38,973 nucleotides of DNA from Candidatus Woesearchaeota archaeon (GTDB lineage Archaea; Nanobdellota; Nanobdellia; Woesearchaeales; WJKL01): contig JAAOYC010000032.1 of NCBI GenBank assembly GCA_018221125.1, positions 1 to 38,973 of the forward strand, written 5' to 3'. Below are positions 13,215 to 38,059 of the stretch, in pieces. Within the stretch, counting starts at the first letter, position 1; each line of letters opens with the position of its first letter. A model generated the notes under the pieces. The model worked only from the letters and a program-made list of their open reading frames with translations, ran no database searches and had not been told where the DNA came from. The translations under genes were made by a program, and so were the position numbers.

Positions 13215-13217
13215 AAC

Positions 13218-13247
13218 TTTTTTCTTTTCTTTTTTTCTTTTTTATTT
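13218..13247 (+). terminator. oligo-T archaeal terminator
   Basis: T-rich run directly after the S-layer-like gene stop. Confidence 0.6.
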
Positions 13248-13311
13248 ATCCTGTTAAAAACAAGAATCTTTATATAATTCTAAAACATATCATATCTGGG
13301 TGGAAGCATAG

Positions 13312-21536: not shown

Positions 21537-22184
21537 ATGGCTAAGGAAGATCTAGAGAAAGTATTGAAGAAGAAAGTTGAGCCTTTGCTAGAAGAATCAA
21601 TGCACAAGATTTTAGGTGTAACTATTTCTGAGTTTGGGAAAGATATCACTGACAGTATTGAGAAAAATCCTTTGATTGCCTATGATATTGATATTAGATT
21701 GGGTTTTAAGGCAGCAAAAAAACTGTTCAAGAAGCAGTTCTTGACAAGGATGCTGCAGACTAATTTTGGAAACATCTCTGCTGTTGCAAAAGTAACTGAA
21801 TTAGACAGGAGAAGCGTGCATAGAGCTGTAAAGGAATTGGGAATAGGAATAAAAGGGATTAGAAGAGATATGATTAAAGCTGATTATTATCGTCGAGAAG
21901 CTGTTGGAGAGATATTGAAAGGGACTTTGGACAGTTATAAGACAGTGATCAGGCCTGGAAAGCTAGAGAATATGTATGAGAATGTTGACAAGATAAGCTT
22001 TGATATTGTGAAAGAACTACCTGCAATAGAGATGAGCTGGGATGCTGCTGAGAAGATGTTTGAAATCCAGTATTTTGAGAAAGCACTTAAGGAGAATAAA
22101 GGCAATGTTTCCAGAACAGCGCGTAGAATAGGTTTAAGATATGAAACTTTGCATAGGAAGCTGAAGAAGTTAGGGTTGAAGTAG
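21537..22184 (+). CDS. tandem Fis-type (HTH_8) DNA-binding protein
   Basis: GNISAVAKVTELDRRSVHRAVKELG and GNVSRTARRIGLRYETLHRKLKKLG. Confidence 0.8.
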   Translation: MAKEDLEKVLKKKVEPLLEESMHKILGVTISEFGKDITDSIEKNPLIAYDIDIRLGFKAAKKLFKKQFLTRMLQTNFGNISAVAKVTELDRRSVHRAVKELGIGIKGIRRDMIKADYYRREAVGEILKGTLDSYKTVIRPGKLENMYENVDKISFDIVKELPAIEMSWDAAEKMFEIQYFEKALKENKGNVSRTARRIGLRYETLHRKLKKLGLK

Positions 22185-22185
22185 A

Positions 22186-22776
22186 TTAAGATGAATATTT
22201 TTGAATGAATTCTTCTACTTTGCTGTTGAAAAGATTTTCAGTTTCTTGTTCTTGTTGTTCTTGGATCTTCTTATAATGCTTTACAATAGGAATATGAAGT
22301 ACAGCAGGTATAATCCCTCCCACAATAGCTCCTAAAACTGAACCAGCTGGGGCAGCAACATAAGCAATATTCTGGCTTTCTGTTAAGTAGTCAGCTAAAG
22401 TTCCTGCACCGATTGCTCCTCCAATATAACCAGCTACTGCAAATGTTATGCATGATGCTATAGCACTATATCCTGGAAGAGTGGGTGTGTCTTCTATATT
22501 TTCTTTAAGCATATCCCTTAAGTTTGGCAATTCTGATAATTCTTTTCCCCAGTTAGGAATTGAAAGGGTTTTTTCACTAAGTGAAGCATTCCTTATTGAA
22601 TGATAATGAACTATTTGACAAAACTCTTCATAATAATCTTTACCAAGTCCTTTAAGTTCATTTGCAACATGAGATTTAAGATTTTCTAAATCTGATTCTT
22701 CTAAACCCCATGAATCGGAATTTAATCTAAGAGAATCCCAAGCCTCCATTGCTGGTGTAATTATTTCCATTAACAT
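22186..22776 (-). CDS. ORFan array gene 10; Gly/Ala-rich two-helix membrane protein
   Basis: Hydrophobic GxxxG-rich hairpin (AVAGYIGGAIGAG; AGSVLGAIVGGII). Confidence 0.8.
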   Translation of the reverse strand: MLMEIITPAMEAWDSLRLNSDSWGLEESDLENLKSHVANELKGLGKDYYEEFCQIVHYHSIRNASLSEKTLSIPNWGKELSELPNLRDMLKENIEDTPTLPGYSAIASCITFAVAGYIGGAIGAGTLADYLTESQNIAYVAAPAGSVLGAIVGGIIPAVLHIPIVKHYKKIQEQQEQETENLFNSKVEEFIQKYSS

Positions 22777-22779
22777 TTT

Positions 22780-23064
22780 TTATTCTCCTTCAGTCATATC
22801 TGCCAATAATATTGCAAGTCCTCCAACAACTTCATCTCTTTCTCTGAGTCTCTGTTCATATCCAAAACGGTTTTTAGGGTTAGGATTATTGAATTTAAAT
22901 GTAACATTTTGAAAATAGTTTCCACAATCCTCTGCTTTTACTTCTACGTAATTTCCATAAGATTCTAGCCGTCTACCACTGTGTAGTCTGTTTGGATGTT
23001 GTGTAAGATAGAATCTTACCTGATCCATCTGTTCCCAATTCAATCCATCTACTTTTATTTTCAT
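22780..23064 (-). CDS. ORFan array gene 9 (94 aa)
   Basis: Likely start ATG 23064; ends EGE* inside the junction motif. Confidence 0.75.
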   Translation of the reverse strand: MKIKVDGLNWEQMDQVRFYLTQHPNRLHSGRRLESYGNYVEVKAEDCGNYFQNVTFKFNNPNPKNRFGYEQRLRERDEVVGGLAILLADMTEGE

Positions 23065-23068
23065 CTTT

Positions 23069-23557
23069 TTATTTATCACTGCCTAAAATATCTTCAACCC
23101 CTTTTGATAAAGGTCTTTCAACAATACTTCTTTCTATCTCTTTTGCTTCCTCAGAAGTTATTGGTTCTGTCCAAAAATGTTCGCCTATACTGGCTTTCAT
23201 TTGCTTTACTACTTCATCAGCATATAATTTCCTTATTGCTCCACAAGGTTGATCTCTGCCCTCTTTGTATAATGCAACATATTCTTCTGTTATTTTTTCT
23301 TCGCCTCTTAATAATTTCAGCACTGCTGCAATCTTTTTAGGATTACGTTCACTTATCTTATCCATCAGTTCGCCTCTTTCTGACAGTTTTTTGCCTACTA
23401 ATAAATCTGCAATAGGTGGATTATGATAATATAGTGAAACAGGTTTTCCATCTTCATAGTGTACTATCACTGCAGTTGTCTCTTCTGGGATTAAACCAGT
23501 TTTGTCTGTGCCATCTATTGCATACGTTTCCTTAACTAATCTAGATTCTATTGTCAT
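23069..23557 (-). CDS. ORFan array gene 8 (162 aa)
   Basis: Start reassigned to ATG 23557, which follows TGAGGTTAAAA and removes a 34-bp overlap. Confidence 0.75.
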   Translation of the reverse strand: MTIESRLVKETYAIDGTDKTGLIPEETTAVIVHYEDGKPVSLYYHNPPIADLLVGKKLSERGELMDKISERNPKKIAAVLKLLRGEEKITEEYVALYKEGRDQPCGAIRKLYADEVVKQMKASIGEHFWTEPITSEEAKEIERSIVERPLSKGVEDILGSDK

Positions 23558-23565
23558 TTTTAACC

Positions 23566-24444
23566 TCATGGGTCTAACATAAACAATCTTTTTCTCCATT
23601 TAGGGTTTAGTAAAACATCTCCGTAATTTTCTACAAGTCTAACTGAATCTTCAAATAGATTATCTGCTTGGATAAGCAAAGATGGCGCATCATAAGATAA
23701 GCAAGGCCCATCAAATTCTTGCAGCATTTCAACTAATTCAGATTTAGCTTTGTCTATTCCTGGATTATCTGGTGCATTGATTTTTCCCAGACATACTGTA
23801 CCTACGCAAGATTGCGTTATAGGAGATTCTCCATTTATTACATGGAAACCTGAGTAAATATCAGGCAATGTGCTTTTTAGTTCATGTAATTTCTCATGCA
23901 TTTTTGCAAGTGTTTCTTTTCTGTCAATAACTAGAGCTTCACATTCTTCTACTCTGCTAAAATTCTCTTCTGGATTTTCCAAGACTCTTTTAAGAGTTCT
24001 ATAAAGACGTAATGGTGAAGGGCTATCCTCCAAATCTTCAATATTTGCTGCATCAATGATATAACCCACTCTTAAAAGTCTTGCAGCGCTGTTAGTGACT
24101 TCCCTATTACAAGCATCACCAAGACCAAAACGTCTTGCAATTCTTTCAGCAAGTTCCCTTTCCTCATCAGTAGCTCCTGGATAATTTTCAAGCAAATCTA
24201 AATAAGCGCTTAAAGGCTCTGTGTATTCTTTTTTTGATTTGCCTTCTCCATCTATAAGAACTTTCATATCACCGGGCTTTACTTTTAATTCTCCTGCATG
24301 TTCTTTGACTATTCTGTCTACTTTTCTGCCGATATCAACTACATCCTGGGATTTACAGCTAAAATATACACTGTCTACCCAAAACTGATCATTTGCATCT
24401 ATGCAATATACATTTGGTTTTACTACATCAAATTTTATTTCCAT
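23566..24444 (-). CDS. ORFan array gene 7 (292 aa)
   Basis: Long ORF preceded by AAAGGTGAATAAAAATG. Confidence 0.8.
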   Translation of the reverse strand: MEIKFDVVKPNVYCIDANDQFWVDSVYFSCKSQDVVDIGRKVDRIVKEHAGELKVKPGDMKVLIDGEGKSKKEYTEPLSAYLDLLENYPGATDEERELAERIARRFGLGDACNREVTNSAARLLRVGYIIDAANIEDLEDSPSPLRLYRTLKRVLENPEENFSRVEECEALVIDRKETLAKMHEKLHELKSTLPDIYSGFHVINGESPITQSCVGTVCLGKINAPDNPGIDKAKSELVEMLQEFDGPCLSYDAPSLLIQADNLFEDSVRLVENYGDVLLNPKWRKRLFMLDP

Positions 24445-24446
24445 TT

Positions 24447-24947
24447 TTATTCACCTTTATCAAGAAGAGCTCCATAATTAATCAACCAGGGATGCTCTTG
24501 TACAAATTCATTGAATAATTCCTTGAATCTTTCTCCTAATTCCTCGAATTGCTGGTAATATAATTCAGTGTGTCTTTTAATTGCAGGCGTGGTATGTTCT
24601 GGATTCTGGACTTTAATGCAGTTCACACCCATTTCTCTTGCTGATTCTATAATATACTGCTCAAAATCTACAAAAGACTTGTCTTCCTGAGATGGATATT
24701 CATATTCTTCGACTGCCATTGTTACATATTGACTTACGTGTGAGGCTACTGACACCTCTTTGCTGCCAATGTTTACTTTATTTCCCGCACCAATGATAAC
24801 TCCAATAAGTGCCTTAGCCTCATAGCCTACTCCCTTTTCAGGATCAAATCCATAAACAATAACACTTGGTCTTAATCCACCTTCGAATTCTACCTTATAT
24901 TCTAAACTAATTTCTTCTTTTCTTGGTTCTTGTGTTTCTTCTGTCAT
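24447..24947 (-). CDS. ORFan array gene 6 (166 aa)
   Basis: Starts MTEE, ends DKGE*. Confidence 0.8.
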   Translation of the reverse strand: MTEETQEPRKEEISLEYKVEFEGGLRPSVIVYGFDPEKGVGYEAKALIGVIIGAGNKVNIGSKEVSVASHVSQYVTMAVEEYEYPSQEDKSFVDFEQYIIESAREMGVNCIKVQNPEHTTPAIKRHTELYYQQFEELGERFKELFNEFVQEHPWLINYGALLDKGE

Positions 24948-24950
24948 TTT

Positions 24951-25373
24951 TTATTCACCTTTTGAGTCAGGTGCTTTAAGTTCAGCTTTTGCGTCAAGTA
25001 CTTGAAGTTCACCTGCATATTGTCTTACTCTATAATAACCATCTTTGAAATCGCAAAAGAATTCTTTTACCATATCTACATAATCATATCCTATAGTAAC
25101 TCCTAAACCAAATCCCACTCCTAGAGTCAATAAAGTTGCTAAATCACTGCTTTCAAATGCATAGTGGGTAAAAGTTGCGACACCACTTAAAACAGCAACA
25201 GGCAAAGCAACTCCGCCAACTGCTTTTAGAAAGCTCTTGTTTCTCTCGCTTTTAGCTTCACCTAAACAATCTTCTATTCCTTCTCTCTTCTTAAGATTAT
25301 CCAAAGCTTGATCTAACTTTTCTGTATCAATTTTTTCATTGAGGTTTGAATAGTCTCCTTCTGGACATTTCAT
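24951..25373 (-). CDS. ORFan array gene 5; two-helix membrane protein
   Basis: Hydrophobic hairpin with LGVGFGLGVTIG; ends KGE*. Confidence 0.8.
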   Translation of the reverse strand: MKCPEGDYSNLNEKIDTEKLDQALDNLKKREGIEDCLGEAKSERNKSFLKAVGGVALPVAVLSGVATFTHYAFESSDLATLLTLGVGFGLGVTIGYDYVDMVKEFFCDFKDGYYRVRQYAGELQVLDAKAELKAPDSKGE

Positions 25374-25843
25374 TCTTCATCACCTACTTTTGTTCTAGAA
25401 ACATAAAACTGCGCTGTTGCGTGCATAGAATATTCAACCTTTTTTGATTTTTCCCAAAGGTTGTTGAAAATATAATCATCTATAACATCTGGTTTTATAT
25501 TACCCATTATATCACTATCTTCTGTGCGTGCATCAAGATCTACTGGAGGTCTGACTTCTTGTTCAACAAAATTAACACTAAAATAAGGAACTCCTAATTC
25601 TTCTGCCATACGCATTGAAGAACGAAATATTTCTCCTGAGCCATATTCCTCCCTGATTCTTTTAGAGGGCATAGATACAATATAATTTCTTGGACCTAGA
25701 TAAGCAGAGCTGACCATTGTCAATTCATCTGGTTCAATCTTGTCATCAAGTGTTTTTGCAAAGTAGAAACGATCTAATTCAGCTAGTCTGAATACTCCGT
25801 CTTTCAAAACAATTAATTGTGGTTTTGGTTTTTCTTCTGTCAT
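25370..25843 (-). CDS. ORFan array gene 4 (157 aa)
   Basis: Starts MTEE; ATGA overlap with the next gene. Confidence 0.8.
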   Translation of the reverse strand: MTEEKPKPQLIVLKDGVFRLAELDRFYFAKTLDDKIEPDELTMVSSAYLGPRNYIVSMPSKRIREEYGSGEIFRSSMRMAEELGVPYFSVNFVEQEVRPPVDLDARTEDSDIMGNIKPDVIDDYIFNNLWEKSKKVEYSMHATAQFYVSRTKVGDEE

Positions 25844-25850
25844 TTTTTAT

Positions 25851-26477
25851 TCACCTGTATCCTAATCCTACTATTGGAAGTGCATATTGCACTATAACAT
25901 TTCCTTGTTCATCCAGAACCTGGAAACCTAGAATTGAAACTGATTTACCTAAAAATTCTTTCAGAGAAATTAAATTTAATTTTTCTTCTGGAAAGCGTGG
26001 TTCTAAAGATGATTCTAGTTGGTTAAGTTTTTCAAGTGGTGGATCCTTTATGAGTTCAAAATTATCGTATGGTTCATTTTCAGGGAGTAGATCTTTTTTT
26101 TCTATTTTTTCAAGCAGTGGAATTCTTTTTTCTATTTTATCTCTGTCAAAAAACTCTTCAAGAGAAGATAAATTTTCTTCTCGATAATTAGGTTGGTCTT
26201 TTATGACTAATTCAGGAAAGTGTTTAAGTCTTATATCATCATATAAATCAAGTGAATAAACAACTACTCTTGCTCCTAAACCAATTCTTAATGGAATATC
26301 CATTCTAAAAGGCTCTTCATGCCCTTCCAGTCTGAACTCCAGGCTTCCCTGATGTTTAACAGCATAGCTATCCATACCTAAGAATTTTTTAGCTTCTATC
26401 TGCTCATGAGATGACTCCTGTACAACTCTTCCTTCTGTATGAGGAATTTCCTTACCATCTAAATATAGTCTTTCCAT
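25851..26477 (-). CDS. ORFan array gene 3 (208 aa)
   Basis: Junction motif on both sides. Confidence 0.8.
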   Translation of the reverse strand: MERLYLDGKEIPHTEGRVVQESSHEQIEAKKFLGMDSYAVKHQGSLEFRLEGHEEPFRMDIPLRIGLGARVVVYSLDLYDDIRLKHFPELVIKDQPNYREENLSSLEEFFDRDKIEKRIPLLEKIEKKDLLPENEPYDNFELIKDPPLEKLNQLESSLEPRFPEEKLNLISLKEFLGKSVSILGFQVLDEQGNVIVQYALPIVGLGYR

Positions 26478-26480
26478 TTT

Positions 26481-26861
26481 TTATTCACCTTTATCAATAC
26501 CAATTCCATATATTTGAATAGAATCTCCATATGCTGTAACTTCTCTTCCTTTTAGAACAGACAAATCTTCTCCTAAAGTTCCTGTATCGCAAAGAAATGA
26601 AGCAATCCTCTCTAAGCCTGCGATTGGAAGACTTGCATGGGTACCAGATTCAGATATTTCTACATATAATCCAGATTGTTCAGAATCAATCTTTTGCCTG
26701 TCACATTTAATTCTTTCAACAACTCTGCCTGGGCCAATTTGGAAAAAATAAGCATCAGCAATTGTTGCTTCTTGTGATTTAGCATTAGCTAAATCTGCTT
26801 CAGTAATATCTCTATTTGATGGTGTGTATACCCTTTGATTGTTGAATTCGAATGTTTTCAT
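26481..26861 (-). CDS. ORFan array gene 2 (126 aa)
   Basis: Ends DKGE*. Confidence 0.8.
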   Translation of the reverse strand: MKTFEFNNQRVYTPSNRDITEADLANAKSQEATIADAYFFQIGPGRVVERIKCDRQKIDSEQSGLYVEISESGTHASLPIAGLERIASFLCDTGTLGEDLSVLKGREVTAYGDSIQIYGIGIDKGE

Positions 26862-26864
26862 TTT

Positions 26865-27236
26865 TTATCCCCATCGCTCTGATTTTTCACTGCTGATATC
26901 TGTCCTACCAGGATTCATTTTAGAATATCCAAAAGTAATTAGTATATCCTCTCTAGCTTTTCTTAACTGTTCTCTGTCTTCTCCTAATAGAACTAATGCA
27001 GTCAATACATCACCATCCTGAGCACCATGAACATACTGGGTTCCATCAAAATGATCTTTTCTAAATACAGCATCTCTAAATTCAACTTGGCAGCCATATT
27101 GTTCAGCTACAAAACTAAATGTTGGCCTTATTCCACTTCCTTTGAGATATCTATTATCTAATACTGCGTCTGTTGAAACGTGTCCATAAACTACTATTTC
27201 CTGTAATGTTTTTTCTTGAGTTTCATTTGTTTCCAT
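26865..27236 (-). CDS. ORFan array gene 1 (123 aa)
   Basis: Preceded by AAAGGTGATAAAAAATG and a promoter at 27299-27309. Confidence 0.8.
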   Translation of the reverse strand: METNETQEKTLQEIVVYGHVSTDAVLDNRYLKGSGIRPTFSFVAEQYGCQVEFRDAVFRKDHFDGTQYVHGAQDGDVLTALVLLGEDREQLRKAREDILITFGYSKMNPGRTDISSEKSERWG

Positions 27237-27277
27237 TTTTTATCACCTTTTGTTGTTATTTAATCACTTCTCAGTAA

Positions 27278-27386
27278 GTATATAGATTTCAAGCATATGT
27301 ATAAACCTTGTTATTATAGAATATAGATTAGTATATATGTATATACAAGCGAAAGGTTTAAATAGTTCTAGGATTTATCTATACAT
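27278..27386. promoter_or_regulatory. divergent promoters with repeated TATAGA/TATATAC boxes
   Basis: AAGGTTTATAC (minus, 27299-27309) and AAAGGTTTAAATA (plus, 27352-27364); TATAGA occurs several times. Confidence 0.6.
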
Positions 27387-28286
27387 ATGAAGAGAAAAAT
27401 CGTAAAACAAGGGGCAGCAACTATGACTATTAGCCTGCCTGCTCCATGGATTAAGAAATTCAGCTTAAAAGAAGGAGATGAGCTTAATATAGAGGAAGTT
27501 GGAAGCAGTATCAATATAACAACTGAGAAGGCTATGGGCAAGAGAAGGATAGAGCTGGATGCAAAAGAGCTTGGTTTTTTCACTAAAAATGAGCTAGGGC
27601 ATCTGTATTTTCTTGGTTTTGATGAAGTGATTATTCATTTTAAGAATAAAGAAGTGCTAAACCAGATAAAAAGCAGGCTGCCTGACTGCATTGGATATGA
27701 GATTATAGACCAGACTGAGGATAAGATAGTGATAAAAAGCATATCAAGCGAGTTAGAAACAGAATTTGACAATATCTTAAGAAAGGTATTTCTGATGCTA
27801 AAAGAGATGGGAGACAGTGTCTATGATGCATTAAAAAACAATGAATTTTCAAGATTAAAACAAATAAGAGATATGGAATCAATAAACAACAAATTTACTG
27901 CTTTTTTAACAAGATTGTTGTCTAAAAAAGGATATAAAAGGCCAGAAAGAAGCCTGCAGGCGTATGACATGATGCAAAACTTAGAAAGAACTGCTGATGT
28001 GTACAAGTATATATGTGATGATTTTATAAATAGGAAGAAAGCAGTTGATAAAGATGTTTTAGAATTATTAAACAAGATAAATGATTATTATAAACTGTTA
28101 TATGAAATCTTCTACAAGTTTGATCCTGAGAAAAAGACAGCATTATATGGAGACAGGCATGCATTGAAAGAGCAGGCTGATAAATTCCTGAAATCAGGCA
28201 AAGAAGTTGTTCTAAGCCATCATTTGATTGAGCTGTTAGAAAGGATATATAACACAGCTGGTTCTTATTTAGCTATGAGTATTTAA
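27387..28286 (+). CDS. archaeal AbrB-PhoU family regulator
   Basis: MKRKIVKQGAATMTISLP..WIKK..LKEGDEL AbrB domain; LYFLGFDEV, IGYEIIDQ and LERTAD PhoU-like helices. Confidence 0.88.
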   Translation: MKRKIVKQGAATMTISLPAPWIKKFSLKEGDELNIEEVGSSINITTEKAMGKRRIELDAKELGFFTKNELGHLYFLGFDEVIIHFKNKEVLNQIKSRLPDCIGYEIIDQTEDKIVIKSISSELETEFDNILRKVFLMLKEMGDSVYDALKNNEFSRLKQIRDMESINNKFTAFLTRLLSKKGYKRPERSLQAYDMMQNLERTADVYKYICDDFINRKKAVDKDVLELLNKINDYYKLLYEIFYKFDPEKKTALYGDRHALKEQADKFLKSGKEVVLSHHLIELLERIYNTAGSYLAMSI

Positions 28287-29860
28287 GCTGCTGGAACTAC
28301 AACAAGAGGTTCTTTATATTGCTTGTATGCTTTGTAGTTTTCTGCTGTTTGTTTTAGTATTTCAACAGGAGATTCTGCTGCAAAGTCTACTAAAGAAGTT
28401 CTAAGATTTGAAAGCATTCCTGCTTCAGCTGGATTTTGTGTTAAAGCACCGTCTATCATGCTGATTGCTTTTTCAAAATATAATTTGCATTTTTGCATCT
28501 GTTCATCTTTTACTTTTGGATGTTCTTTTGCAAATATGATTGCTCCTCCGCATTTGTCAATCTGGTCATTGATCAAGGAGTATCTTAATGCTGTAGATAA
28601 CCAAGTATTAGGAAGCAATAATGGAGTTTTATGTTCTGCTGAGTGTTCATTATGTTTGTCAACATACATGTGCAGCATATCTCTTGAAAATTCAGCTGGG
28701 TCCATGTCAGACCTGTCTCTTATTACAGAGTTTGTGAATCTTGCCAAGTCATCAAATTTCCTTCCTATTTTTGCTGCTTCATAATCTACAATAAAGCATT
28801 CTTCTTCTGACATTCTGCAGTTTCCTATGTGGAAATCTCCGTGTGTGAAATGTCTTGGGTCAAATGTTTTAGTAAAAGCAGAGTAAGCCTGCATTAAATC
28901 GTGAGCTTGAGGACTTACGATTACAGAATTACCTGATACAGGCGTTACAAATCTGCTTCTAAATTGAGTATTATAGTCAGTTAGTTCTAATGACAAGCCA
29001 TAATGTTCTCTTAATTCTGGCAAGTTCAATGAAGCCAGAACATGGATCTGTGATATCTTGTCTAAAGCTTTTCCGCATGCATCTAGAACTTCTGAGTCAG
29101 AACCTTGTTTTACAACATTTCTTAATTCCTGTTCACCAACATGATTAATAAGCAATCTTGTGTTTCTGTCATAGATTGTGTGTGTCTTGATTCCTAAATC
29201 ATTCAAGAATTGAGGAAGAATTTCTTCTTTTTCATCTGCATCTTTTGCAACAATATGTAATTGTTTTAATGCTCCATTTTCTTCATATTCAAATGTTAAG
29301 ATATCAACATTATGCTGGGACTGGTCTGCTAAGCTTACTATTCCTGAATATCTTATTCCAGGATGCTCTTGTGCAAGCATTGCTAATACTGGCTTGTATT
29401 CATCTGGCAAAGAACTTTCTGCAGTTTCTAATGAAACTGCTGCTTTTGTTTTAGGTGCTTCTGATTCTTTTTTAACAGAATAACCGGCTTTAGTATAATT
29501 ACCTAAAAGTTTTTCTAATGATTCAATGTTTTCTTTGTTATTAAATATGTATTCCTTCATTTCTTCTTTGTCATAGGATGTGTACTTCTCTTTAAATTTA
29601 GAATATTGTTCTATTTGAGGGATATAATACTGATTGAATTCTTCTGGATTTTCCTCTAATTGGTTATAAACAATAGAATCTAGATCTTTTATTTTATGAT
29701 TTAGACTATTATGGTTTATATTCTCTTTTTTGATTTTCTTAGAGTTTTCATTGAGAAAAGAACTGTAATAGATCTCAATATTTTTTAGAATACTAGGTTC
29801 ATAATTATTTTCCTTCTTGCTAAAACCATCTATAATTATTTCTTCTAGTGATTTATCCAT
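28283..29860 (-). CDS. APH/choline kinase-like phosphotransferase
   Basis: IVAK lysine, THGDFHIGN Brenner motif, IVDYE, DDLARF; long charged N-terminal extension. Confidence 0.85.
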   Translation of the reverse strand: MDKSLEEIIIDGFSKKENNYEPSILKNIEIYYSSFLNENSKKIKKENINHNSLNHKIKDLDSIVYNQLEENPEEFNQYYIPQIEQYSKFKEKYTSYDKEEMKEYIFNNKENIESLEKLLGNYTKAGYSVKKESEAPKTKAAVSLETAESSLPDEYKPVLAMLAQEHPGIRYSGIVSLADQSQHNVDILTFEYEENGALKQLHIVAKDADEKEEILPQFLNDLGIKTHTIYDRNTRLLINHVGEQELRNVVKQGSDSEVLDACGKALDKISQIHVLASLNLPELREHYGLSLELTDYNTQFRSRFVTPVSGNSVIVSPQAHDLMQAYSAFTKTFDPRHFTHGDFHIGNCRMSEEECFIVDYEAAKIGRKFDDLARFTNSVIRDRSDMDPAEFSRDMLHMYVDKHNEHSAEHKTPLLLPNTWLSTALRYSLINDQIDKCGGAIIFAKEHPKVKDEQMQKCKLYFEKAISMIDGALTQNPAEAGMLSNLRTSLVDFAAESPVEILKQTAENYKAYKQYKEPLVVVPAA

Positions 29861-29890
29861 AAGTCCTCATGAATTTAGAGGTATTACTCC

Positions 29891-29931
29891 TTTATAAACC
29901 TTTCGGTTTTTCACTACTAAAGGGTGGTTAC
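29891..29931 (-). promoter_or_regulatory. extended promoter motif shared with 35558-35597
   Basis: Minus strand reads GTAACCACCCTTTAGTAGTGAAAAACCGAAAGGTTTATAAA. Confidence 0.65.
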
Positions 29932-29935
29932 GTTA

Positions 29936-30727
29936 TTACTGCAGTGATCCTTCTAATATTTTTTCTAGTTTTCTAAAATTCCACCAGTTTCTTATATGTC
30001 CTTTAACATCTATTAAAGAATTAATAATTTCAATGTCAATATATGCCTGCATATCTAATTTTACATGAACTGTTCCTGTTCTGTAATAAGCTGAGGAGTC
30101 TCTTTTTAATAATTCTTCAACATCAATATCAAGTGTCATAGAAGGGTCAATCTTTTTTCCGTTTTTTATTGTTAAAGCAGTTGTTTCCCATGGAATCCAT
30201 TTACCGTTTGAATAAAGTTCAACCCATGCATGGCAAACCCATCCTTTTATATGTTTACTATAACTAAGACCTTCTGCAAGTCTAACAAGATTTCTCATCT
30301 TAGGGCATTCTGTTTTTGTAGATAATACAACAAACATTGAATAAGTCAGTGCTGCATATTCATCACAATCTCCTTCTCCTTTTTTAAAACTTCTTTCTAA
30401 ATCAAGCCCGTCTGTCATTTCATAATCCTGGATTGTTTCTGCAATCATATTAGCATATTTAAGCCATCCAATTGTTTTTTCTTCTAAAGAAGGGTTTTCA
30501 TTTTCATAAGGAAAATCATATTTTGAGAAATGAAAAAAAGATTCAGTTTTTTTATTGATTGTTATTGTAGGTTGTGATTGTTCTGCTTTTTTTTGGAGAT
30601 AAAAGTAATCAATGGGTATGCTTGAAGCAACATTTGCAATATAAAAAAGTCCTAAAAAACCTATTATGGATCTTACATATTTTCTAAATCTATTTTTTTT
30701 CTTAAGTTTCTGTTCTAAGTCATCCAT
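29936..30727 (-). CDS. membrane-anchored transglutaminase-like cysteine protease
   Basis: GDCDEYA, HAWVEL, WIPWET triad; N-terminal TM; start ATG 30727 lies 21 bp after TTTATAAA. Confidence 0.85.
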   Translation of the reverse strand: MDDLEQKLKKKNRFRKYVRSIIGFLGLFYIANVASSIPIDYFYLQKKAEQSQPTITINKKTESFFHFSKYDFPYENENPSLEEKTIGWLKYANMIAETIQDYEMTDGLDLERSFKKGEGDCDEYAALTYSMFVVLSTKTECPKMRNLVRLAEGLSYSKHIKGWVCHAWVELYSNGKWIPWETTALTIKNGKKIDPSMTLDIDVEELLKRDSSAYYRTGTVHVKLDMQAYIDIEIINSLIDVKGHIRNWWNFRKLEKILEGSLQ

Positions 30728-30767
30728 GCTTAAACACATATTAAATGATTTATAAAGATTGGCGTAT

Positions 30768-30812
30768 TATGAAACATTGCATAGAAAGCTGAAGAAATTA
30801 GGGTTGAAATAG
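30768..30812 (+). repeat. orphan 45-bp copy of the 3' end of the Fis-like gene (direct repeat with 22140-22184)
   Basis: 41/45 identical; reads YETLHRKLKKLGLK*. Confidence 0.95.
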
Positions 30813-31571
30813 TTACCTTACTCCAGCAACATTTCTTGAAGATTTTCTGCTTTCAGAAATAATATGAATTTCTCCACTTGAGTCTATTTGAAGAGAGACT
30901 TTTCTTATATATTTGGAGGGGTCTCTTAATACATTATTATCTTTAACAAAGATGGTTGCCAATGTAGGATACATTACTGGTCCGTTTGGGATTTTTAAAA
31001 CAGTAGTTTCGTATGGAATCCATTTTCCCTTTAATTTGATTTCAAGATAAGCATGTTCACCCCCTGAAACGCCTTCAGTAAATTTAGCATAATCCCTTAA
31101 TTCAGTAAGTTTTAGTCTTTCAGTTATTGCAAAGAACTGTGTGTATGTCATTTCAGCATATGTTTCGCAATCTCCTTTGGCTCTTTTTAATGCTTTATCT
31201 GGGTCATAGCCTCTTGTTACTTCATAATCTATTCTTGAGTCTACGATTATATTAGCAAGTTTTAGACATTCAATTGTTTTTCTTTCTAATTCAGAATATT
31301 TTCCAGTTGCTTCAGGAGTGCTAAACCCATTTTCAGCATAATATGATAAATCAATACCTGAAAAACCTATTTTTTCCTGCAGTTCTTTTGACTGGACCCG
31401 CTCTGCTCTTCTATTAAGGCGTGCTGCTTGTCTTCTGCTTGGAATTACATTGTATTTTTGGTTTACATTGTGTAAATAACAGCCGCTGGAAATAATCGCA
31501 GCTGCTGAAAGAATCCATGGAGTTGCAGCATGGTCCCAAATATATTTGACAGTTTCTGTGAACTTTCCCAT
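30813..31571 (-). CDS. transglutaminase-like cysteine protease (paralog)
   Basis: GDCETYA, HAYLEI, WIPYETT; N-terminal hydrophobic segment ending SSGC. Confidence 0.85.
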   Translation of the reverse strand: MGKFTETVKYIWDHAATPWILSAAAIISSGCYLHNVNQKYNVIPSRRQAARLNRRAERVQSKELQEKIGFSGIDLSYYAENGFSTPEATGKYSELERKTIECLKLANIIVDSRIDYEVTRGYDPDKALKRAKGDCETYAEMTYTQFFAITERLKLTELRDYAKFTEGVSGGEHAYLEIKLKGKWIPYETTVLKIPNGPVMYPTLATIFVKDNNVLRDPSKYIRKVSLQIDSSGEIHIISESRKSSRNVAGVR

Positions 31572-31602
31572 AATAAAATAATGTTTTAGTAATTTATAAA
31601 CC

Positions 31603-31740
31603 TTAGGGATTTAAATGTCTAGTAGAAAATAATTTCATTACTGAAAGATATGTGCCTACATCCTTAGAAAGTTTTTGCAGAGCATCAGCAATTCCTTCTG
31701 CCACAAAACCATCTATTGATTCTGTACTGAAAACTCCCAT
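31603..31740 (-). pseudogene. 45-aa ORF or truncated gene
   Basis: MGVFSTESIDGFVAEG... with TTTATAAA about 22 bp upstream; its stop overlaps the next gene's BRE/TATA. Confidence 0.45.
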
Positions 31741-31774
31741 AAAGATAGTAAATTTAAGGTTTTTTATAAAGCTT

Positions 31775-33400
31775 TTAGAATTTGATAAAAAATCCTGCAT
31801 TGATTGATTCTGTTTCTTCTGGATCTCCTCCATAATCTTCTTCTTCTCTTTGGTAATTAACAGTAAATCCTTTTTTTCCTGAATTTATATAGAGTCCTGC
31901 AGTAATGCCTTGTTTATCTGGGCAGAATTCATAATCAGAAACAGTTTTGTATATTCCTAAATCTATTCCAATATCCTTGCTGCCTATTTTTACATCTGCT
32001 CCAAACTCTTTTTCCCATGGCCTGTGCATAAAATAAGATTCAACTGAAAGATTTGCTTTATTGAACTTGACAAGAGCTCCTACTCCTGCTTCATAAAGGC
32101 CTGGTTTGACATGTTCTGCTCCAACTTCATAAAAATCAGCAAACTGGACAACAACATATGGCTTGATATCTGCTGCTTCTGTCTTTGCATTGTAAGAACC
32201 CACAGCTCCAATCATCCATTCTTTATTAAGCATATCATCAGCTGTCCTGATTAGAGTAGCGGCAACCTTTCCTCCTATGCTAAATCCCTGTTCATTATTT
32301 GTAGACATAGATGAACTAATAGTTAATCCATATACGTCATTATTGTCTATTTCTAAGTCATGATGGATTTTTCCATAGATTAACCCTGCAGTCATGTCAC
32401 TGTCCATATCACTTTCTGATGATTTCATTGCATATCCAAAGTGAATCAAATCCAGGTGTTTTAATGGAGAAGACTCACTTCCTCTTACTGTTCCTATTTT
32501 TGCAAAAAAGCCGTTATGATTTAATTTAGCTGAATCAACATAGTCTCCTTTATCTAAGGTGATTATTGTACCTTTTTCCTCTTTAACTCCATGAAGCAGT
32601 AAATCTTTAAGAGGCTTGAAACAAGGATCATAATCCAGGAAATCAAAAAGATGCTTCCCATCATCTGTAATCAGCTTGTATTTCATTTTACCGTCTTCTA
32701 AAAACATATGCTCAAATGAAGCTGTTCCAATATTTTTTTGATAAGCTTCAAGAGTTTTTTTAACATTGTTTGTATTAGTCAATAGAATATGTTCATAATC
32801 AATAACAGCAAGTCCATTATCCAGTTTTACCAATGAATAAAGATGGCCTTTTCCTTTTCTGTTTCCTGAAATTGCTGCAGATTCCATGCCCAGATCATCT
32901 GCAAGCTTTTCAATGAATGAATGAATATGTACGCAGTCTCCAATTGGTCTTTCATTTCCAGTGTTTAATGAATACTGCAATGCTGAAAAAAATGAGTTTT
33001 GAGAAACTAATTCGTCTTCTGATGTTTCATAATTAAATTCCTCTGCAAATCCTGCAATAGCTGCAAACAAAGCAATGTTTTGGCTGTCTGAAAGTGTTCC
33101 AGCTCTTTGCACAAGCTCCTGATATGAATTGATGTTATTGTCTCTTATATCATTCATTACATCTTCTACCTGAATTTCTTCTGGATTTGTTAAAAAAAGG
33201 ATATTTGGAACAAGGTCTAGCTGCGACATTCCCCTTATATATGTTGAATCTCCTGTTACATAACTTGTTTTTTTTGGCTTTGTTTCTGTCTTATAATTGA
33301 CTTTGACTTCTATTGATTCTTCAGAAGCTGCACTAGTGATAAACATACCTGCTGCTAGTACTGCAGCTGCTATTCCCTTGACAATGCTTTCTAATCCCAT
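31775..33400 (-). CDS. secreted transglutaminase-like protein with beta-strand-rich C-terminal half
   Basis: Signal peptide (..TSAA/S); GDCVHIH, GHLYSLV, VIDY triad; alternating-hydrophobic strands ending NAGFFIKF. Confidence 0.75.
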   Translation of the reverse strand: MGLESIVKGIAAAVLAAGMFITSAASEESIEVKVNYKTETKPKKTSYVTGDSTYIRGMSQLDLVPNILFLTNPEEIQVEDVMNDIRDNNINSYQELVQRAGTLSDSQNIALFAAIAGFAEEFNYETSEDELVSQNSFFSALQYSLNTGNERPIGDCVHIHSFIEKLADDLGMESAAISGNRKGKGHLYSLVKLDNGLAVIDYEHILLTNTNNVKKTLEAYQKNIGTASFEHMFLEDGKMKYKLITDDGKHLFDFLDYDPCFKPLKDLLLHGVKEEKGTIITLDKGDYVDSAKLNHNGFFAKIGTVRGSESSPLKHLDLIHFGYAMKSSESDMDSDMTAGLIYGKIHHDLEIDNNDVYGLTISSSMSTNNEQGFSIGGKVAATLIRTADDMLNKEWMIGAVGSYNAKTEAADIKPYVVVQFADFYEVGAEHVKPGLYEAGVGALVKFNKANLSVESYFMHRPWEKEFGADVKIGSKDIGIDLGIYKTVSDYEFCPDKQGITAGLYINSGKKGFTVNYQREEEDYGGDPEETESINAGFFIKF

Positions 33401-33423
33401 AGAAATAAGTTATTTTAGAGCAA

Positions 33424-33553
33424 TATAAACCTCAGTTGTAGTTATAAGTACAACAAAGGATATGACTTTTTTGTCACAGATTTGGATAGTTTTATACACT
33501 AGTATTTATAAGTCTAGAAATCATATATACTATAGTGTGATATTAGTGTCACA
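33424..33553. promoter_or_regulatory. divergent promoter region with three palindromes
   Basis: GTTGTA-N8-TACAAC (33435-33454), TATGAC-N6-GTCACA (33461-33478), TGTGAT-N6-GTCACA (33536-33553); TATA boxes near 33424 (minus) and 33505 (plus). Confidence 0.6.
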
Positions 33554-33694: not shown

Positions 33695-34543
33695 ATGTCC
33701 TATTCAATCAATTGCGGAGATAGTGGAGGCTGCGGTTACAGCAGCAATGGAGGAAGTGCAGGTTATTCTACAAGGGATTCTGAAAACACAGAAAATTATG
33801 GTTTAGAAGGTGTTCTTGGAAAATATAGCGGAAGCAGTGGAGGAGGCAATGTCTATTCTGGAAATGATATCTCTTATATGATTGCAGCAGAGCCTGCTCA
33901 GTTCAGATCAAGTGGATTCTATGATTTTGATAATGTAAAAAAAGAAGTTTATTCAGACAATTATAAAACAAATAAAAGAATTTCTGAAACATATTCTCAT
34001 TCAGTAGATGATTTTCTTAATCCAGAAAGGCCAAAAACTGTTTTTGTTGGAAAAGCCAATGAAATCAAAGAATTTGTTGAAGAGACATTTTTCAAATTAA
34101 CAGGAAGAGATTTTCCAGATGATGTTGTTGTCAGAATAGTGACTGATGAAGAGATAAAGAAGATGCATCCTGGCAATGTCTTAGGATTTGCATTGAACAG
34201 AAAACATCTTGGATTGGTTTCAGAGATATTTGTCAAGAATGATATGCTGGACAGATTGATGATTACACTTGGGCATGAATTAGGGCATGTGTTGACTAGA
34301 AGATTATCTGATAATAAAGATGAAGAAGCAAAGGCATTTGCATTCAGCTTAGCCTGGATGAAAAAGATCAAAGAGGAGAATATTGCAAACTTATCAACTT
34401 CAATACAATTAGATGCTCCTGCTAAGAACGGGCTGCATGATGTTGCCTTGGATTTTGTCTTAGGATTGATAAATAAGGGAAGAGAGGCATTTGATGTCTG
34501 GAAAGATATTGTAAAAGGTTTTGTGAGAGTGGGAGCATGGTAA
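33695..34543 (+). CDS. zincin-like metallopeptidase domain protein
   Basis: TLGHELGH (HExxH) followed by EEAKAFAF; Gly/Ser-rich N-terminus. Confidence 0.75.
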   Translation: MSYSINCGDSGGCGYSSNGGSAGYSTRDSENTENYGLEGVLGKYSGSSGGGNVYSGNDISYMIAAEPAQFRSSGFYDFDNVKKEVYSDNYKTNKRISETYSHSVDDFLNPERPKTVFVGKANEIKEFVEETFFKLTGRDFPDDVVVRIVTDEEIKKMHPGNVLGFALNRKHLGLVSEIFVKNDMLDRLMITLGHELGHVLTRRLSDNKDEEAKAFAFSLAWMKKIKEENIANLSTSIQLDAPAKNGLHDVALDFVLGLINKGREAFDVWKDIVKGFVRVGAW

Positions 34544-34851
34544 GTGCTTCTGAGCAGTATACTGCTATGCAAGCAATAACTAAACAATATGAATTAACTC
34601 CAATTCCTAATCCTGGAAAAGATTACGAAAGCGGCAATTCAAAGTTTAATTATGTTGCTATGCTAGACAAACCTTATCAAGGAAGAGCTGTAATCGACAA
34701 TCCTGCTGTGCAGGAAAAAGAGAAACCTAGAGTTCAATATAATTCTAGTGAAAGAATAATAGACCTGCCTCAAATGTCTCATAAGAAGAATGATAATCTT
34801 AGTGAAAGAATTTTAAGCCTGCCTCAAATGTTCTATAAGCAGAGTGCTTAG
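34537..34851 (+). CDS. hypothetical protein with an 18-aa-period C-terminal repeat
   Basis: SERIIDLPQMSHK / SERILSLPQMFYK; GGAG before ATG. Confidence 0.65.
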   Translation: MVSASEQYTAMQAITKQYELTPIPNPGKDYESGNSKFNYVAMLDKPYQGRAVIDNPAVQEKEKPRVQYNSSERIIDLPQMSHKKNDNLSERILSLPQMFYKQSA

Positions 34852-36353: not shown

Positions 36354-37334
36354 CTGATCTAATTTCTTCCGCAGGATGTAATACCCTTTTCTTTGAATAA
36401 GATTGTGAAGAGTTATGTCTCCTTCTGCTGCAAAGTGAGTTGGCCTGTTCTTCTCAAACTTCATCCACATCCTGCTGGCAGGATAAATTATCTTCACAAT
36501 TATGACATCTGTTGCTGCGCCGGATCCTACCAGATGCCTGATTTGCATTTCACTCATTCTAGAATAATCCATTGGCTCTAGCAGATAGATATAAGGATCA
36601 AGCTTGTTCTTTCTCAAAAACGCCTTATCATGTTCAATTATGTCTGCTGCATCCTTGTTTGTAAAATGATACCCTAGGATTTCTACATTAGTTCCTTTTA
36701 ATGTGCAGCCCTGCACAGGTCTCGAATCCCTGAATATCTGGTTTCCTTTTATTTCCACAGTGATTTTGTTTGAAACCAGACTTCCTTTCTCAATCAGTTT
36801 AGCAAGCCTGACATAGTCTCCCTTTATCCCTTTTCCGGGCTTTATACTCTGATATTCCTCTATGTTTTTCAGATATTCTGTAAAACATTTCTCCAGCTCC
36901 TGCAGCAAGACAACCATCTGCCTTATTCCTTGGCTGTAAGCAGAATCTACCTCATTTTTTAATTGCTCCCAGTCTAATGGGGTTTTATCCAATATAACAG
37001 ATATTGTGCCTTTTTCTCCTAGCCATGGATTGGAAAGCTTTGAGATTATATTATTTTCGTAGATTTTTATTTGCCCTTCAATCTGATTTATTTTTGATAC
37101 AAATATAGAGTCTAGTCTCTTCAGAGTATCAAGAAGATGTATCAATTTTTCTTCAAACCTGTGCTCTCTCTTTAATGTCCTTGAGCAGGCATTTGCATAT
37201 ACTCTTGACTGCGCTTCGTTTCTTGAGCTAACAAATTTTTTTAATTTTTCAAGAAAATGGGATTCAAGCATTATCCATTTCTTTTCCCTTTCAATCAGCC
37301 TGATTATTTTTTTGATGGCATCTATTGTTTCCAT
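36348..37334 (-). CDS. helical N-terminal domain plus C-terminal ADP-ribosyltransferase-like domain
   Basis: GYHFT....A..I....F....PYIYL...EGDITL; start ATG 37334 couples to the TrmB stop (TAATG). Confidence 0.55.
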   Translation of the reverse strand: METIDAIKKIIRLIEREKKWIMLESHFLEKLKKFVSSRNEAQSRVYANACSRTLKREHRFEEKLIHLLDTLKRLDSIFVSKINQIEGQIKIYENNIISKLSNPWLGEKGTISVILDKTPLDWEQLKNEVDSAYSQGIRQMVVLLQELEKCFTEYLKNIEEYQSIKPGKGIKGDYVRLAKLIEKGSLVSNKITVEIKGNQIFRDSRPVQGCTLKGTNVEILGYHFTNKDAADIIEHDKAFLRKNKLDPYIYLLEPMDYSRMSEMQIRHLVGSGAATDVIIVKIIYPASRMWMKFEKNRPTHFAAEGDITLHNLIQRKGYYILRKKLDQL

Positions 37335-38059
37335 TATTCTTTTCCAACCTTCCAAAGCAATTCAAATAATTTTCTTTCTGTTTCAGCAATTTCTTTGTTG
37401 TCTATAATAACTCCAATAGAATTCTCTTTTTCAAAGGTTAAGGTTGCAACTTTATTGCCATAGATTATCTTTGTTGTTGGCAATCTTTCATTGATGAATT
37501 TTAAGTCAACAGATTTTCGAGGATTTTTCTTCTGGTAATTCCTCATTCTTTTGCAGTCTAATGTTATTACTTTGGAAAACATCCCAAGTTTTCTCTTTTT
37601 CCTGATAAAATGAGGAAAATAAAAAGGCAGAGCATCCATGAAATTAGGGTCTGCTATAAACCATGTTTCTTTTTTGTGCTTTAATATATCTTCTAAGACT
37701 GTTTTTAGGCCAGCAATGCCTTCATATAATTCTATAGCAGGCTTTGCTTTTACTGATTCTTTTAATGCTTCTAATTCAGGAAGGATTGATTTAAGTTTAA
37801 CCTCTTTTTCCTGCAAATCACCCAGGAATTTTCTAGGAGCAGCTGATTCAAAATATTTAACTCCTGACTTTATAACATAGCTAACTAATCCTTTTTCCTG
37901 AAGATATTTCAAAACATCATAGCAAGTTACCCTATTAAGCCTGGATTTTTTTGCAATTGCATTGACTGCTGACTGGCCTAAGGATAATAGAGTAAGATAT
38001 ACTTTTATTTCCTTGTCTGATAATCCTAAATCCCTTAAGATTGCTTGTTTTTCAGGCAT
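37334..38059 (-). CDS. TrmB-family transcriptional regulator
   Basis: LGLSDKEIKVYLTLL...RVTCYDVLKYLQEKGLVSY, YEGIAG, IIYGNKV...FELLW. Confidence 0.9.
   Translation of the reverse strand: MPEKQAILRDLGLSDKEIKVYLTLLSLGQSAVNAIAKKSRLNRVTCYDVLKYLQEKGLVSYVIKSGVKYFESAAPRKFLGDLQEKEVKLKSILPELEALKESVKAKPAIELYEGIAGLKTVLEDILKHKKETWFIADPNFMDALPFYFPHFIRKKRKLGMFSKVITLDCKRMRNYQKKNPRKSVDLKFINERLPTTKIIYGNKVATLTFEKENSIGVIIDNKEIAETERKLFELLWKVGKE

Follow-up and report, generated by a model that had tools for sequence, protein, structure and literature searches.

The window analysed here is the whole of contig JAAOYC010000032.1 (38,973 nucleotides, forward strand) from GenBank assembly GCA_018221125.1 of Candidatus Woesearchaeota archaeon, a member of the Woesearchaeales in the Nanobdellota. 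Near its right end, the reverse strand encodes a protein of 541 amino acids (aa), which is the subject of this study. A preliminary description, made from the DNA and its open reading frames (ORFs), had read this protein as autotransporter-like, with a signal peptide, a transglutaminase-like domain and a C-terminal beta-barrel that ends in phenylalanine. Here, we report structure predictions, structural comparisons and homologue searches, which together predict a large barrel of the outer-membrane type with a thiol-enzyme domain built into its first turn and place it in a family native to archaea. Both folds are known. The literature searched describes neither the two in combination nor this topology of insertion nor, above all, outer-membrane-type barrels as a family native to archaea. 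The gene and its parts are laid out as follows.

31775..33400, reverse strand: focal gene, 541 aa plus stop, ATG start, one ORF (from the ORF list)
33422..33429, reverse strand: TATA-like box TTTATATT, 22-29 nt 5' of the ATG (read from the sequence)
33323..33400, reverse strand: export-signal-like segment, residues 1-26, with a short polar start, a hydrophobic core and SAAS/EES
33236..33313, reverse strand: two predicted N-terminal barrel strands, residues 30-55 (DSSP on the model)
32591..33187, reverse strand: inserted transglutaminase-fold, cysteine protease-like domain, residues 72-270 (fold matches)
32933..32935, reverse strand: Cys156 codon; putative nucleophile, which begins helix 156-169
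32843..32845, reverse strand: codon of His186, on strand 184-193
32798..32800, reverse strand: codon of Asp201, at the end of strand 196-201
31778..32569, reverse strand: predicted main barrel body, residues 278-541, sixteen antiparallel strands (DSSP, Foldseek, VIA-align)
31778..31801, reverse strand: last strand NAGFFIKF, residues 534-541, with the terminal Phe (read from the sequence)

The peptides from which the barrel had originally been proposed (FSIGGKVAA, MIGAVGSYN, AGVGALVKF, FGADVKIG, IDLGIYK and ITAGLYIN, and the ending NAGFFIKF) are all found in the translation. The proposed signal peptide is likewise in place, residues 1-27 being the sole transmembrane-like hydrophobic stretch of the protein. 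By a heuristic count, a hydrophobic segment at the N-terminus is present in 65 of the 72 members of the family alignment used throughout this study. Cleavage of the signal would be expected after about residue 26.

A native archaeal promoter had also been claimed for the gene. We counted TTTAWA motifs upstream of the 565 ORFs of the focal genome that are at least 200 aa long and have 100 nt of upstream sequence. Motif starts at -35 to -26 number 133 (two 5-nt bins), as compared to 9-26 per bin in the other 17 bins. The TATA-like box of the focal gene lies at -29 to -22, where the motifs of the genome cluster. Given this pile-up across the genome, the box in front of the gene is promoter-like and of a kind native to the organism; it is a consensus match and not a mapped promoter.

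Predicted barrel and inserted thiol-enzyme domain

The structure of the focal protein was predicted with AlphaFold2 on the 72-sequence family alignment. The resulting model is a barrel of the outer-membrane type, with a mean predicted local distance difference test score (pLDDT) of 93.7 and a predicted template modelling score (pTM) of 0.90; the five models all reached at least 92.5. According to DSSP, a helix of low confidence (residues 3-19) is followed by two strands (30-39 and 47-55), an alpha/beta domain (72-270) and a run of sixteen strands (278-540). These sixteen strands are antiparallel, comprise 8-17 residues each and are joined by connections of merely 2-8 residues, and helix 262-270 is the sole helix preceding this main run. 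Outside the enzyme domain DSSP assigns 18 strands in all; we use 16-18 as a cautious count for what is predicted to be a closed antiparallel barrel with an even strand number. The preliminary description had taken the barrel to be the C-terminal half of the protein. This is correct for the sixteen strands at 278-541, but strands 30-39 and 47-55 precede the enzyme domain.

Two independent structural searches were carried out with the model. Foldseek against the PDB gave 198 matches at E<=1e-3, and the top matches among those listed are outer-membrane barrels or barrel-containing machines. They include LptD (E 1.5e-7), EspP (5.7e-6) and BrkA (1.6e-5), and also porins and AlgE; OmpG was matched with a TM-score on the target of 0.53-0.59 at a root-mean-square deviation (rmsd) of 6-7 Å. 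VIA-align, a Foldseek-independent search, was run over 48,161 chains, and its 50 best neighbours were considered. All 50 are bacterial outer-membrane or mitochondrial barrels, headed by PgaA (4y25, Z 14.5, 247 residues aligned, rmsd 4.0 Å), OccAB1 (Z 14.3), CdiB (13.8), PelB (13.7) and FhaC (13.5). Most of these alignments start at 24-30 and span model residues 24-541, and therefore take in both N-terminal strands. The model thus matches outer-membrane barrels and not the soluble beta-sandwich that had been named as the alternative fold, and the claim of an outer-membrane-type barrel ending in Phe is borne out by the confident prediction and by both searches.

Conservation within the family was examined strand by strand. 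Averaged over the 72 members, 16 of the 19 DSSP strands have one face that is 0.58-0.80 hydrophobic and another at 0.03-0.45, and strand 30-39 has a clean alternating hydrophobic face. Such a conserved hydrophobic dyad is the pattern one would expect of a lipid-facing barrel wall. Four residues that are predicted to face the lumen (E437, G441, E463 and G467) are kept in 60-72 of the 72 members, which argues that the barrel interior is constrained and not the wall alone. The C-terminal residue is F or Y in 44 of the aligned members, and 53 have an aromatic residue within the last four; among all 142 family matches, 64 end in F and 19 in Y. The glycine of the C-terminal signal shifts by one position between members.

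Closest in structure are the C-terminal domain of PgaA (4y25), OccAB1/OprD (5dl5), FhaC and CdiB (4ql0, 6wil) and PelB (9h80), with Z-scores of 14.5-13.5 over 244-269 aligned residues and rmsd values of 4.0-4.8 Å. With bacterial 16-18-stranded barrels the focal protein has the alternating hydrophobic face and the terminal aromatic residue in common. However, it is 4-10% identical to them in sequence, without any Pfam or PDB sequence match, and it differs from them in that all its loops are short, an enzyme domain occupies the first turn and the host is an archaeon in which no Omp85 was found.

Concerning the enzyme domain, Cys156 is kept in 72 of 72 and His186 in 71 of 72 members of the family alignment, and position 201 is occupied by Asp (57 members), Asn (12) or Glu (2). 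In a larger alignment of 85 rows Cys156 is the sole invariant column, and residues 56-277 folded alone on these 85 rows gave a mean pLDDT of 92.3. The Cys-His-Asp order is that of the transglutaminase fold; Cys156 begins a helix, and the two strands that follow carry His186 and Asp201. VIA-align listed LapG (4fgo, Z 9.1, 133 residues aligned, rmsd 3.6 Å), vasohibin (6j4s, 8.5), CPR-C4 (7pjo, 8.2), BDI_1141 (3kd4, 8.0), TglA (7.9), a putative protease of Cytophaga (3isr, 7.1), TG3, TG2 and FXIII (7.1-7.0) and the pseudomurein endoisopeptidases PeiP (6.4) and PeiW (6.3); these Z-scores are moderate, as the typical best chance level of the search is 7-8. Foldseek matched 3isr at E 8.9e-4 and LapG at 2.5e-3. 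The list is coherent and the triad stands where the fold requires it, so that the model points to a thiol enzyme of the transglutaminase/papain-like fold. This agrees with the transglutaminase-like domain recognised earlier from its GDC/H/D residues, which are G-D-C156, H186 and D201. The Pfam profile PF01841 did not match the focal protein and matched 1 of the 72 members (E 0.0077); the domain is therefore filed at the superfamily (fold) level only. Catalysis, whether as a peptidase or as a transamidase, is putative.

LapG, the best structural match of the inserted domain, shares the Cys-His-Asp order. However, it is 14% identical to the focal domain and has no sequence-level match to it. LapG is a free periplasmic protein and not part of a barrel. 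CPR-C4 and the vasohibins resemble the enzyme domain in fold as well, but they are free-standing and barrel-less proteins with 7-8% identity to it. CPR-C4 is described (PMC9108980) as a protein of ultra-small uncultured organisms, which the carriers of the focal family are as well. A weak lead came from an ESM Atlas cluster of Spirochaetota proteins of about 429 aa, annotated as 'transglutaminase-like domain-containing' and DUF2715, which possibly embody the same idea, with a transglutaminase-like domain fused to a barrel from a treponemal outer-membrane family (feature score 0.81, below 0.9). A Pfam scan revealed no similarity of the focal protein to these DUF2715-type proteins at the level of hidden Markov models (HMMs). 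DUF2715 proteins have been named among candidate outer-membrane barrels (PMC13749626).

The arrangement of the two parts departs from that of an autotransporter. Type Va autotransporters consist of a wholly N-terminal passenger followed by a barrel of 12 strands, through whose pore a helix runs. Like EspP (3slo) and BrkA (3qq2), whose barrels are both among the Foldseek matches, the focal protein combines a signal peptide, an enzyme-like domain and a barrel in one chain. However, two of its strands come before the domain and sixteen after it, and its better matches are 16-18-stranded barrels. The autotransporter family PF03797 was not matched when the focal protein was searched in Pfam at E<=0.1 (one unrelated 13.5-bit match only). 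The 72 members together match seven families at E<=0.01, and PF03797 is not one of them. We have therefore abandoned the term autotransporter-like. On the model, the enzyme domain is inserted in the turn between strands 2 and 3 of a 16-18-stranded barrel, an architecture that seems better named a large barrel with a built-in enzyme. As the domain follows strand 2 and both chain ends are in the barrel, it should face the side on which the termini are found. In bacterial barrels this side is periplasmic, and from it the protein enters the membrane.

An archaeal family in a variable genomic setting

The family was collected by an exhaustive HMMER search over 1.84 billion cluster representatives. 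It comprises 142 cluster matches at E<=1e-3, well beyond what chance would give, including 85 at E<=1e-30, which are mostly 510-620 aa long and align end to end. HMMs derived from the family find both parts in 104 of the 142 matches. Nine are barrel-only fragments (86-280 aa) and 29 are enzyme-only; 16 of the latter have at most 376 aa, and 13 are longer and more distant. Pfam, NCBIfam and PHROGs hold no family for the focal protein, and PDB sequence searches with the protein and with its profile gave nothing meaningful. A word-indexed homologue search found one relative only, and the 72-row profile added none. Within the focal genome, the family-domain HMMs detected no paralogue even at E 10.

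Few members are named at NCBI, and every named full-length member belongs to the Pacearchaeota, Nanoarchaeota or Woesearchaeota. A 560-aa match from Brennerbacteria of the candidate phyla radiation (CPR) aligns over the enzyme part and the first strands only (hhalign probability 97%), and a 1562-aa deltaproteobacterial protein has the enzyme domain alone in common with the family. We further scanned one genome per prokaryotic species for related loci, using an 8-row alignment as the query. The seven confirmed loci all lie in metagenome-assembled genomes of 'Candidatus Pacearchaeota' or 'Woesearchaeota', obtained in several projects and on contigs of up to 96 kb. In each of six distinct related loci (L010-L014 and L016; L002 duplicates L012), a TrmB gene (257-304 aa) on the same strand ends immediately before the start of the barrel gene or overlaps it, and may encode a dedicated regulator of the barrel gene. 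The other side is occupied in five of the six by the CCA-adding-enzyme gene family. In L014, for example, one flank holds genes for the proteasome, FttA/aCPSF1, a presenilin-type signal peptide peptidase (SPP) and TrmB, and the other holds genes for the archaeal CCA-adding enzyme, OapC, OapB and a GTPase. Since the family loci lie amid archaeal core genes, bacterial contamination or chimerism is untenable for the family. A TrmB homologue occurs in the window as well, 4 kb from the focal gene (37334-38059).

The focal genome itself has a size of 0.96 Mb in 68 contigs and is 78.6% complete and 0.25% contaminated. It encodes the TATA-binding protein (TBP), and the contig carries genes for type III RuBisCO, two TrmB regulators, a CARDB/subtilase surface protease and a DUF483 protein. 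The GC content in 2-kb windows over the gene is 0.32-0.35, compared to a contig range of 0.30-0.37. An archaeal small-subunit ribosomal RNA was not found in this incomplete genome. TBP, TrmB, DUF483 and the seven archaeal loci speak against a bacterial or chimeric contig, which the preliminary description had taken into account. Its further suggestion of a horizontal acquisition from bacteria is not supported either: no named full-length bacterial homologue was seen, although most matches are unnamed and the gene does lie here in a strain-variable island.

Transmembrane beta-barrels are markers of the outer membranes of bacteria, mitochondria and plastids, and they depend on Omp85-type insertases. 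Archaea are not known to have the barrel assembly machinery (BAM). In line with this, Omp85/BamA (PF01103) was found neither in the focal genome (78.6% complete) nor in five carriers with a completeness of 91-100%, including one assembled as a single 1.3-Mb contig; in seven of seven diderm control bacteria this search was positive. A second barrel in the focal genome was not detected by HMM scans and a crude heuristic. Four further ORFs of this genome combine a signal peptide with a terminal aromatic residue in a heuristic screen, and none of them was judged a barrel. By eye, three of the four look like putative proteins of the signal-peptidase-I type. Three ORFs of 159-175 aa with an N-terminal anchor, located at C44:270-749 and C63:9879-10972, contain motifs that by eye resemble those of type I signal peptidases. 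If the resemblance is right, the enzyme that cleaves export signals would be encoded in three copies. In a carrier genome that is 100% complete (G040), an ORF at locus L027 (G040:C18:17300-17755) matches OMP_b-brl above the Pfam cut-off with 37.9 bits; by this match, the archaeal order appears to contain a further barrel type, of small size.

Downstream of the focal gene, the following features lie on the contig.

30813..31571, reverse strand: membrane-anchored transglutaminase-core neighbour, 252 aa (PF01841 E 1e-4, 23 bits, at the cut-off)
29936..30739, reverse strand: second transglutaminase-core paralogue, 267 aa (PF01841 E 3.9e-5)
30768..30812, forward strand: 45-nt copy of the 3' end of the HTH_8 gene (partner 22140-22184, 91% identical direct repeat)

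The 252-aa and the 267-aa protein are 31% identical (E 9e-32), and each has one N-terminal hydrophobic segment. No significant similarity was found between the 252-aa neighbour, which forms a separate subfamily, and the focal protein, and the HMM of the focal domain did not match it even at E 10; neither of the two paralogues is related in sequence to the focal domain. Together with the focal gene, the two tandem paralogues make three genes of the thiol-enzyme fold in a row, with one paralogue inside and one outside a repeat-flanked element.

This element is bracketed by the 45-nt repeat, which duplicates the 3' end of the Fis-type helix-turn-helix (HTH) gene at 21537-22184. The 8.6 kb between the copies (22185-30767) hold about 12 genes, of which hardly any matches Pfam and none matches PHROGs. 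They look like an element that has integrated at the 3' end of the HTH gene as its target, but no integrase was recognised in this island. The copy at 30768-30812 is at the same time the left edge of a 2.65-kb segment, reaching to 33460, that holds the focal gene and one transglutaminase paralogue. A third copy of the repeat was not found near 33460. In a genome of the same genus (G001, unpublished), the end of the HTH gene abuts the equivalent of position 33461 of the window, and the 11.3-kb stretch 22185-33460 is missing. In another genome of the genus (G002), three unrelated genes (448, 245 and 251 aa) replace this stretch. A hypervariable slot lies between the HTH_8 gene and the conserved gene at 33695-34543. 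A contig of sequencing run X2 has the joint 30811>33460 and possibly represents the empty-site form; its short side measures only 20 letters, and it is considered here solely in combination with G001. In run X1, both borders of the island are covered by contigs that show no difference. X1 is labelled RNA-Seq but probably contains DNA; it was available as contigs only, may be the source sample and has no bearing on expression. From the variability of the island we conclude that the gene is accessory and locally mobile, in a family that is old and archaeal across the phylum.

Other observations concern the surroundings. The focal stop codon is immediately followed by a TTTATAAAAA box, which precedes an ATG at 31740 on the reverse strand by about 25 nt. 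This ATG opens a frame of 45 codons (31603-31740, reverse strand) within a listed 76-aa ORF (31603-31833). The frame may be a small separate gene or a mere spacer before the next gene. On the other side, the divergent gene at 33695-34543 (forward strand) encodes a 282-aa protein with an HELGH motif and a weak match to Peptidase_M48 (E 0.06), which is 59-65% identical in both genomes of the same genus. The gene at 34537-34851 (forward strand) contains a 54-nt tandem duplication (34739-34846, 80% identical). Farther away, the type III RuBisCO gene (9718-10983, forward strand, TIGR03326 E 3e-181) is preceded by a B12-binding radical SAM gene (8181-9689). A surface-protein cluster at 11799-16920 (forward strand) encodes a 471-aa protein, with a weak, below-cut-off match to the NCBIfam model of the PACE-CTERM putative S-layer protein, and then a 1202-aa subtilase with laminin-G and CARDB domains.

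Possible function and biological meaning

Our preferred reading, which we hold tentatively and somewhat short of probable, is that of a barrel enzyme that is embedded in lipid independently of BAM and acts at the cell surface or where the cell touches a partner cell. The Sec system would export the protein, and signal peptidase would remove residues 1 to about 26. Outer-membrane barrels are able to fold into bilayers in vitro, and by analogy the barrel may insert itself into a lipid layer without BamA. The thiol enzyme would stay on the entry side of the barrel and, judging from its fold and conserved triad, could cut or cross-link surface proteins. The contact zone with a partner cell is the likeliest site of action, because the carriers are ultra-small Pace- and Woesearchaeota with reduced genomes. 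There, the barrel might sit in the membrane of the partner or in a lipid layer of the interface and act as a conduit or an anchor, and the enzyme would remodel the surface.

Several points weigh against this proposal. The whole structural case is a prediction: how many strands there are, whether the barrel closes, how thick its belt is and where the enzyme sits with respect to the pore are all deduced from secondary structure and topology. The third residue of the triad is replaced by Asn in 12 of the 72 members. We know of no membrane beyond the cell's own in these archaea and of no host for the organism, and an ungated 18-strand pore in the cytoplasmic membrane of a partner would be lethal. 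Moreover, the family is rare. Of 401 genomes sampled in the phylum, 6 have it, the focal one included, and of 10 further genomes from the focal GTDB family none does, which means that no envelope or symbiosis machinery has it as a core component.

This rarity also bears on the idea that the barrel resides in the envelope of the archaeon itself, within an undescribed outer lipid layer or else inside or beneath the S-layer. It would then form a channel, or an anchor by which a protease is kept in the pseudo-periplasm, comparable to LapG in the bacterial periplasm. Six of 401 genomes are too few for a structural envelope component, and the genomes of the same genus are without the gene. In addition, Omp85 was not found in six genomes, and HMM scans and heuristics brought up one barrel candidate only in the focal genome. 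We consider this explanation doubtful, with some real points in its favour: the enzyme domain is placed on the side of the termini, which is periplasmic in bacterial barrels, its best match is a periplasmic protease, and carrier G040 has the small OMP_b-brl match too. A literature search on archaeal and DPANN outer-membrane beta-barrels and porin-like proteins found no paper on such a protein. The nearest parallel is a single sentence that mentions a possible PopA relative in Altiarchaeales, and the same article describes in bacteria a porin-like 'lipid-trapping' superfamily with a possible distant archaeal relative (PMC12228718). The latter fits a soluble protein, secreted or tethered to the surface, whose barrel binds lipid or hydrophobic cargo or oligomerises via its hydrophobic face; it could scavenge lipid for an organism unable to make lipids. 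That no insertion machinery is known in the searched genomes and that all loops are short (2-8 residues), unlike those of many porins, would suit such a protein. Even so, it seems unlikely to us, given that all 50 listed structural neighbours are integral membrane barrels and that the outward hydrophobic dyad is conserved over nearly all strands. To our knowledge, there is no soluble 16-18-stranded barrel with a hydrophobic exterior.

Finally, the gene could be functionless in the archaeon, a bacterial outer-membrane gene that was misassembled or misbinned or had recently been transferred. With seven of seven related loci archaeal and archaeal core genes on both sides, with named full-length members that are all DPANN, with a promoter box and a box position that fit the focal genome, and with a GC content within the range of the contig, we regard this as highly improbable. 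It is true that the gene lies in an 11.3-kb stretch that is absent from a same-genus genome, beside a repeat-flanked insertion, that its signal peptide and terminal Phe are bacterial in look, and that the ESM Atlas lead (0.81) to Spirochaetota transglutaminase-like and DUF2715 proteins exists, weak as it is. However, the X1 contigs span both island borders unchanged, though X1 may be the source sample, and the triad and the lumen residues are conserved over 72 diverged members.

Extending the preferred reading of a barrel enzyme at the cell contact, one may speculate that ultra-small episymbionts (DPANN, perhaps CPR) export self-inserting, BAM-independent barrels with their own thiol protease into the membrane of the partner. 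Such a barrel would be a gated conduit for metabolites or lipids, and its enzyme would cut or cross-link the surface layer of the partner at the contact site. We think this rather unlikely; if true, cells would here attack or attach to one another with a device of a new class, and functional transmembrane beta-barrels of archaeal origin would be known for the first time.

Archaea that have no recorded outer membrane, and in whose searched genomes an Omp85 gene was not found, thus have a native barrel family that is conserved and predicted with confidence. This raises testable questions about the membrane that holds the barrel, the route of its insertion and the substrate of the built-in cysteine enzyme, and the protein is small enough for expression, refolding and liposome tests. 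As the carriers are uncultured, probably host-dependent Pace- and Woesearchaeota, the protein is a candidate for the molecular interface between DPANN archaea and their partners.

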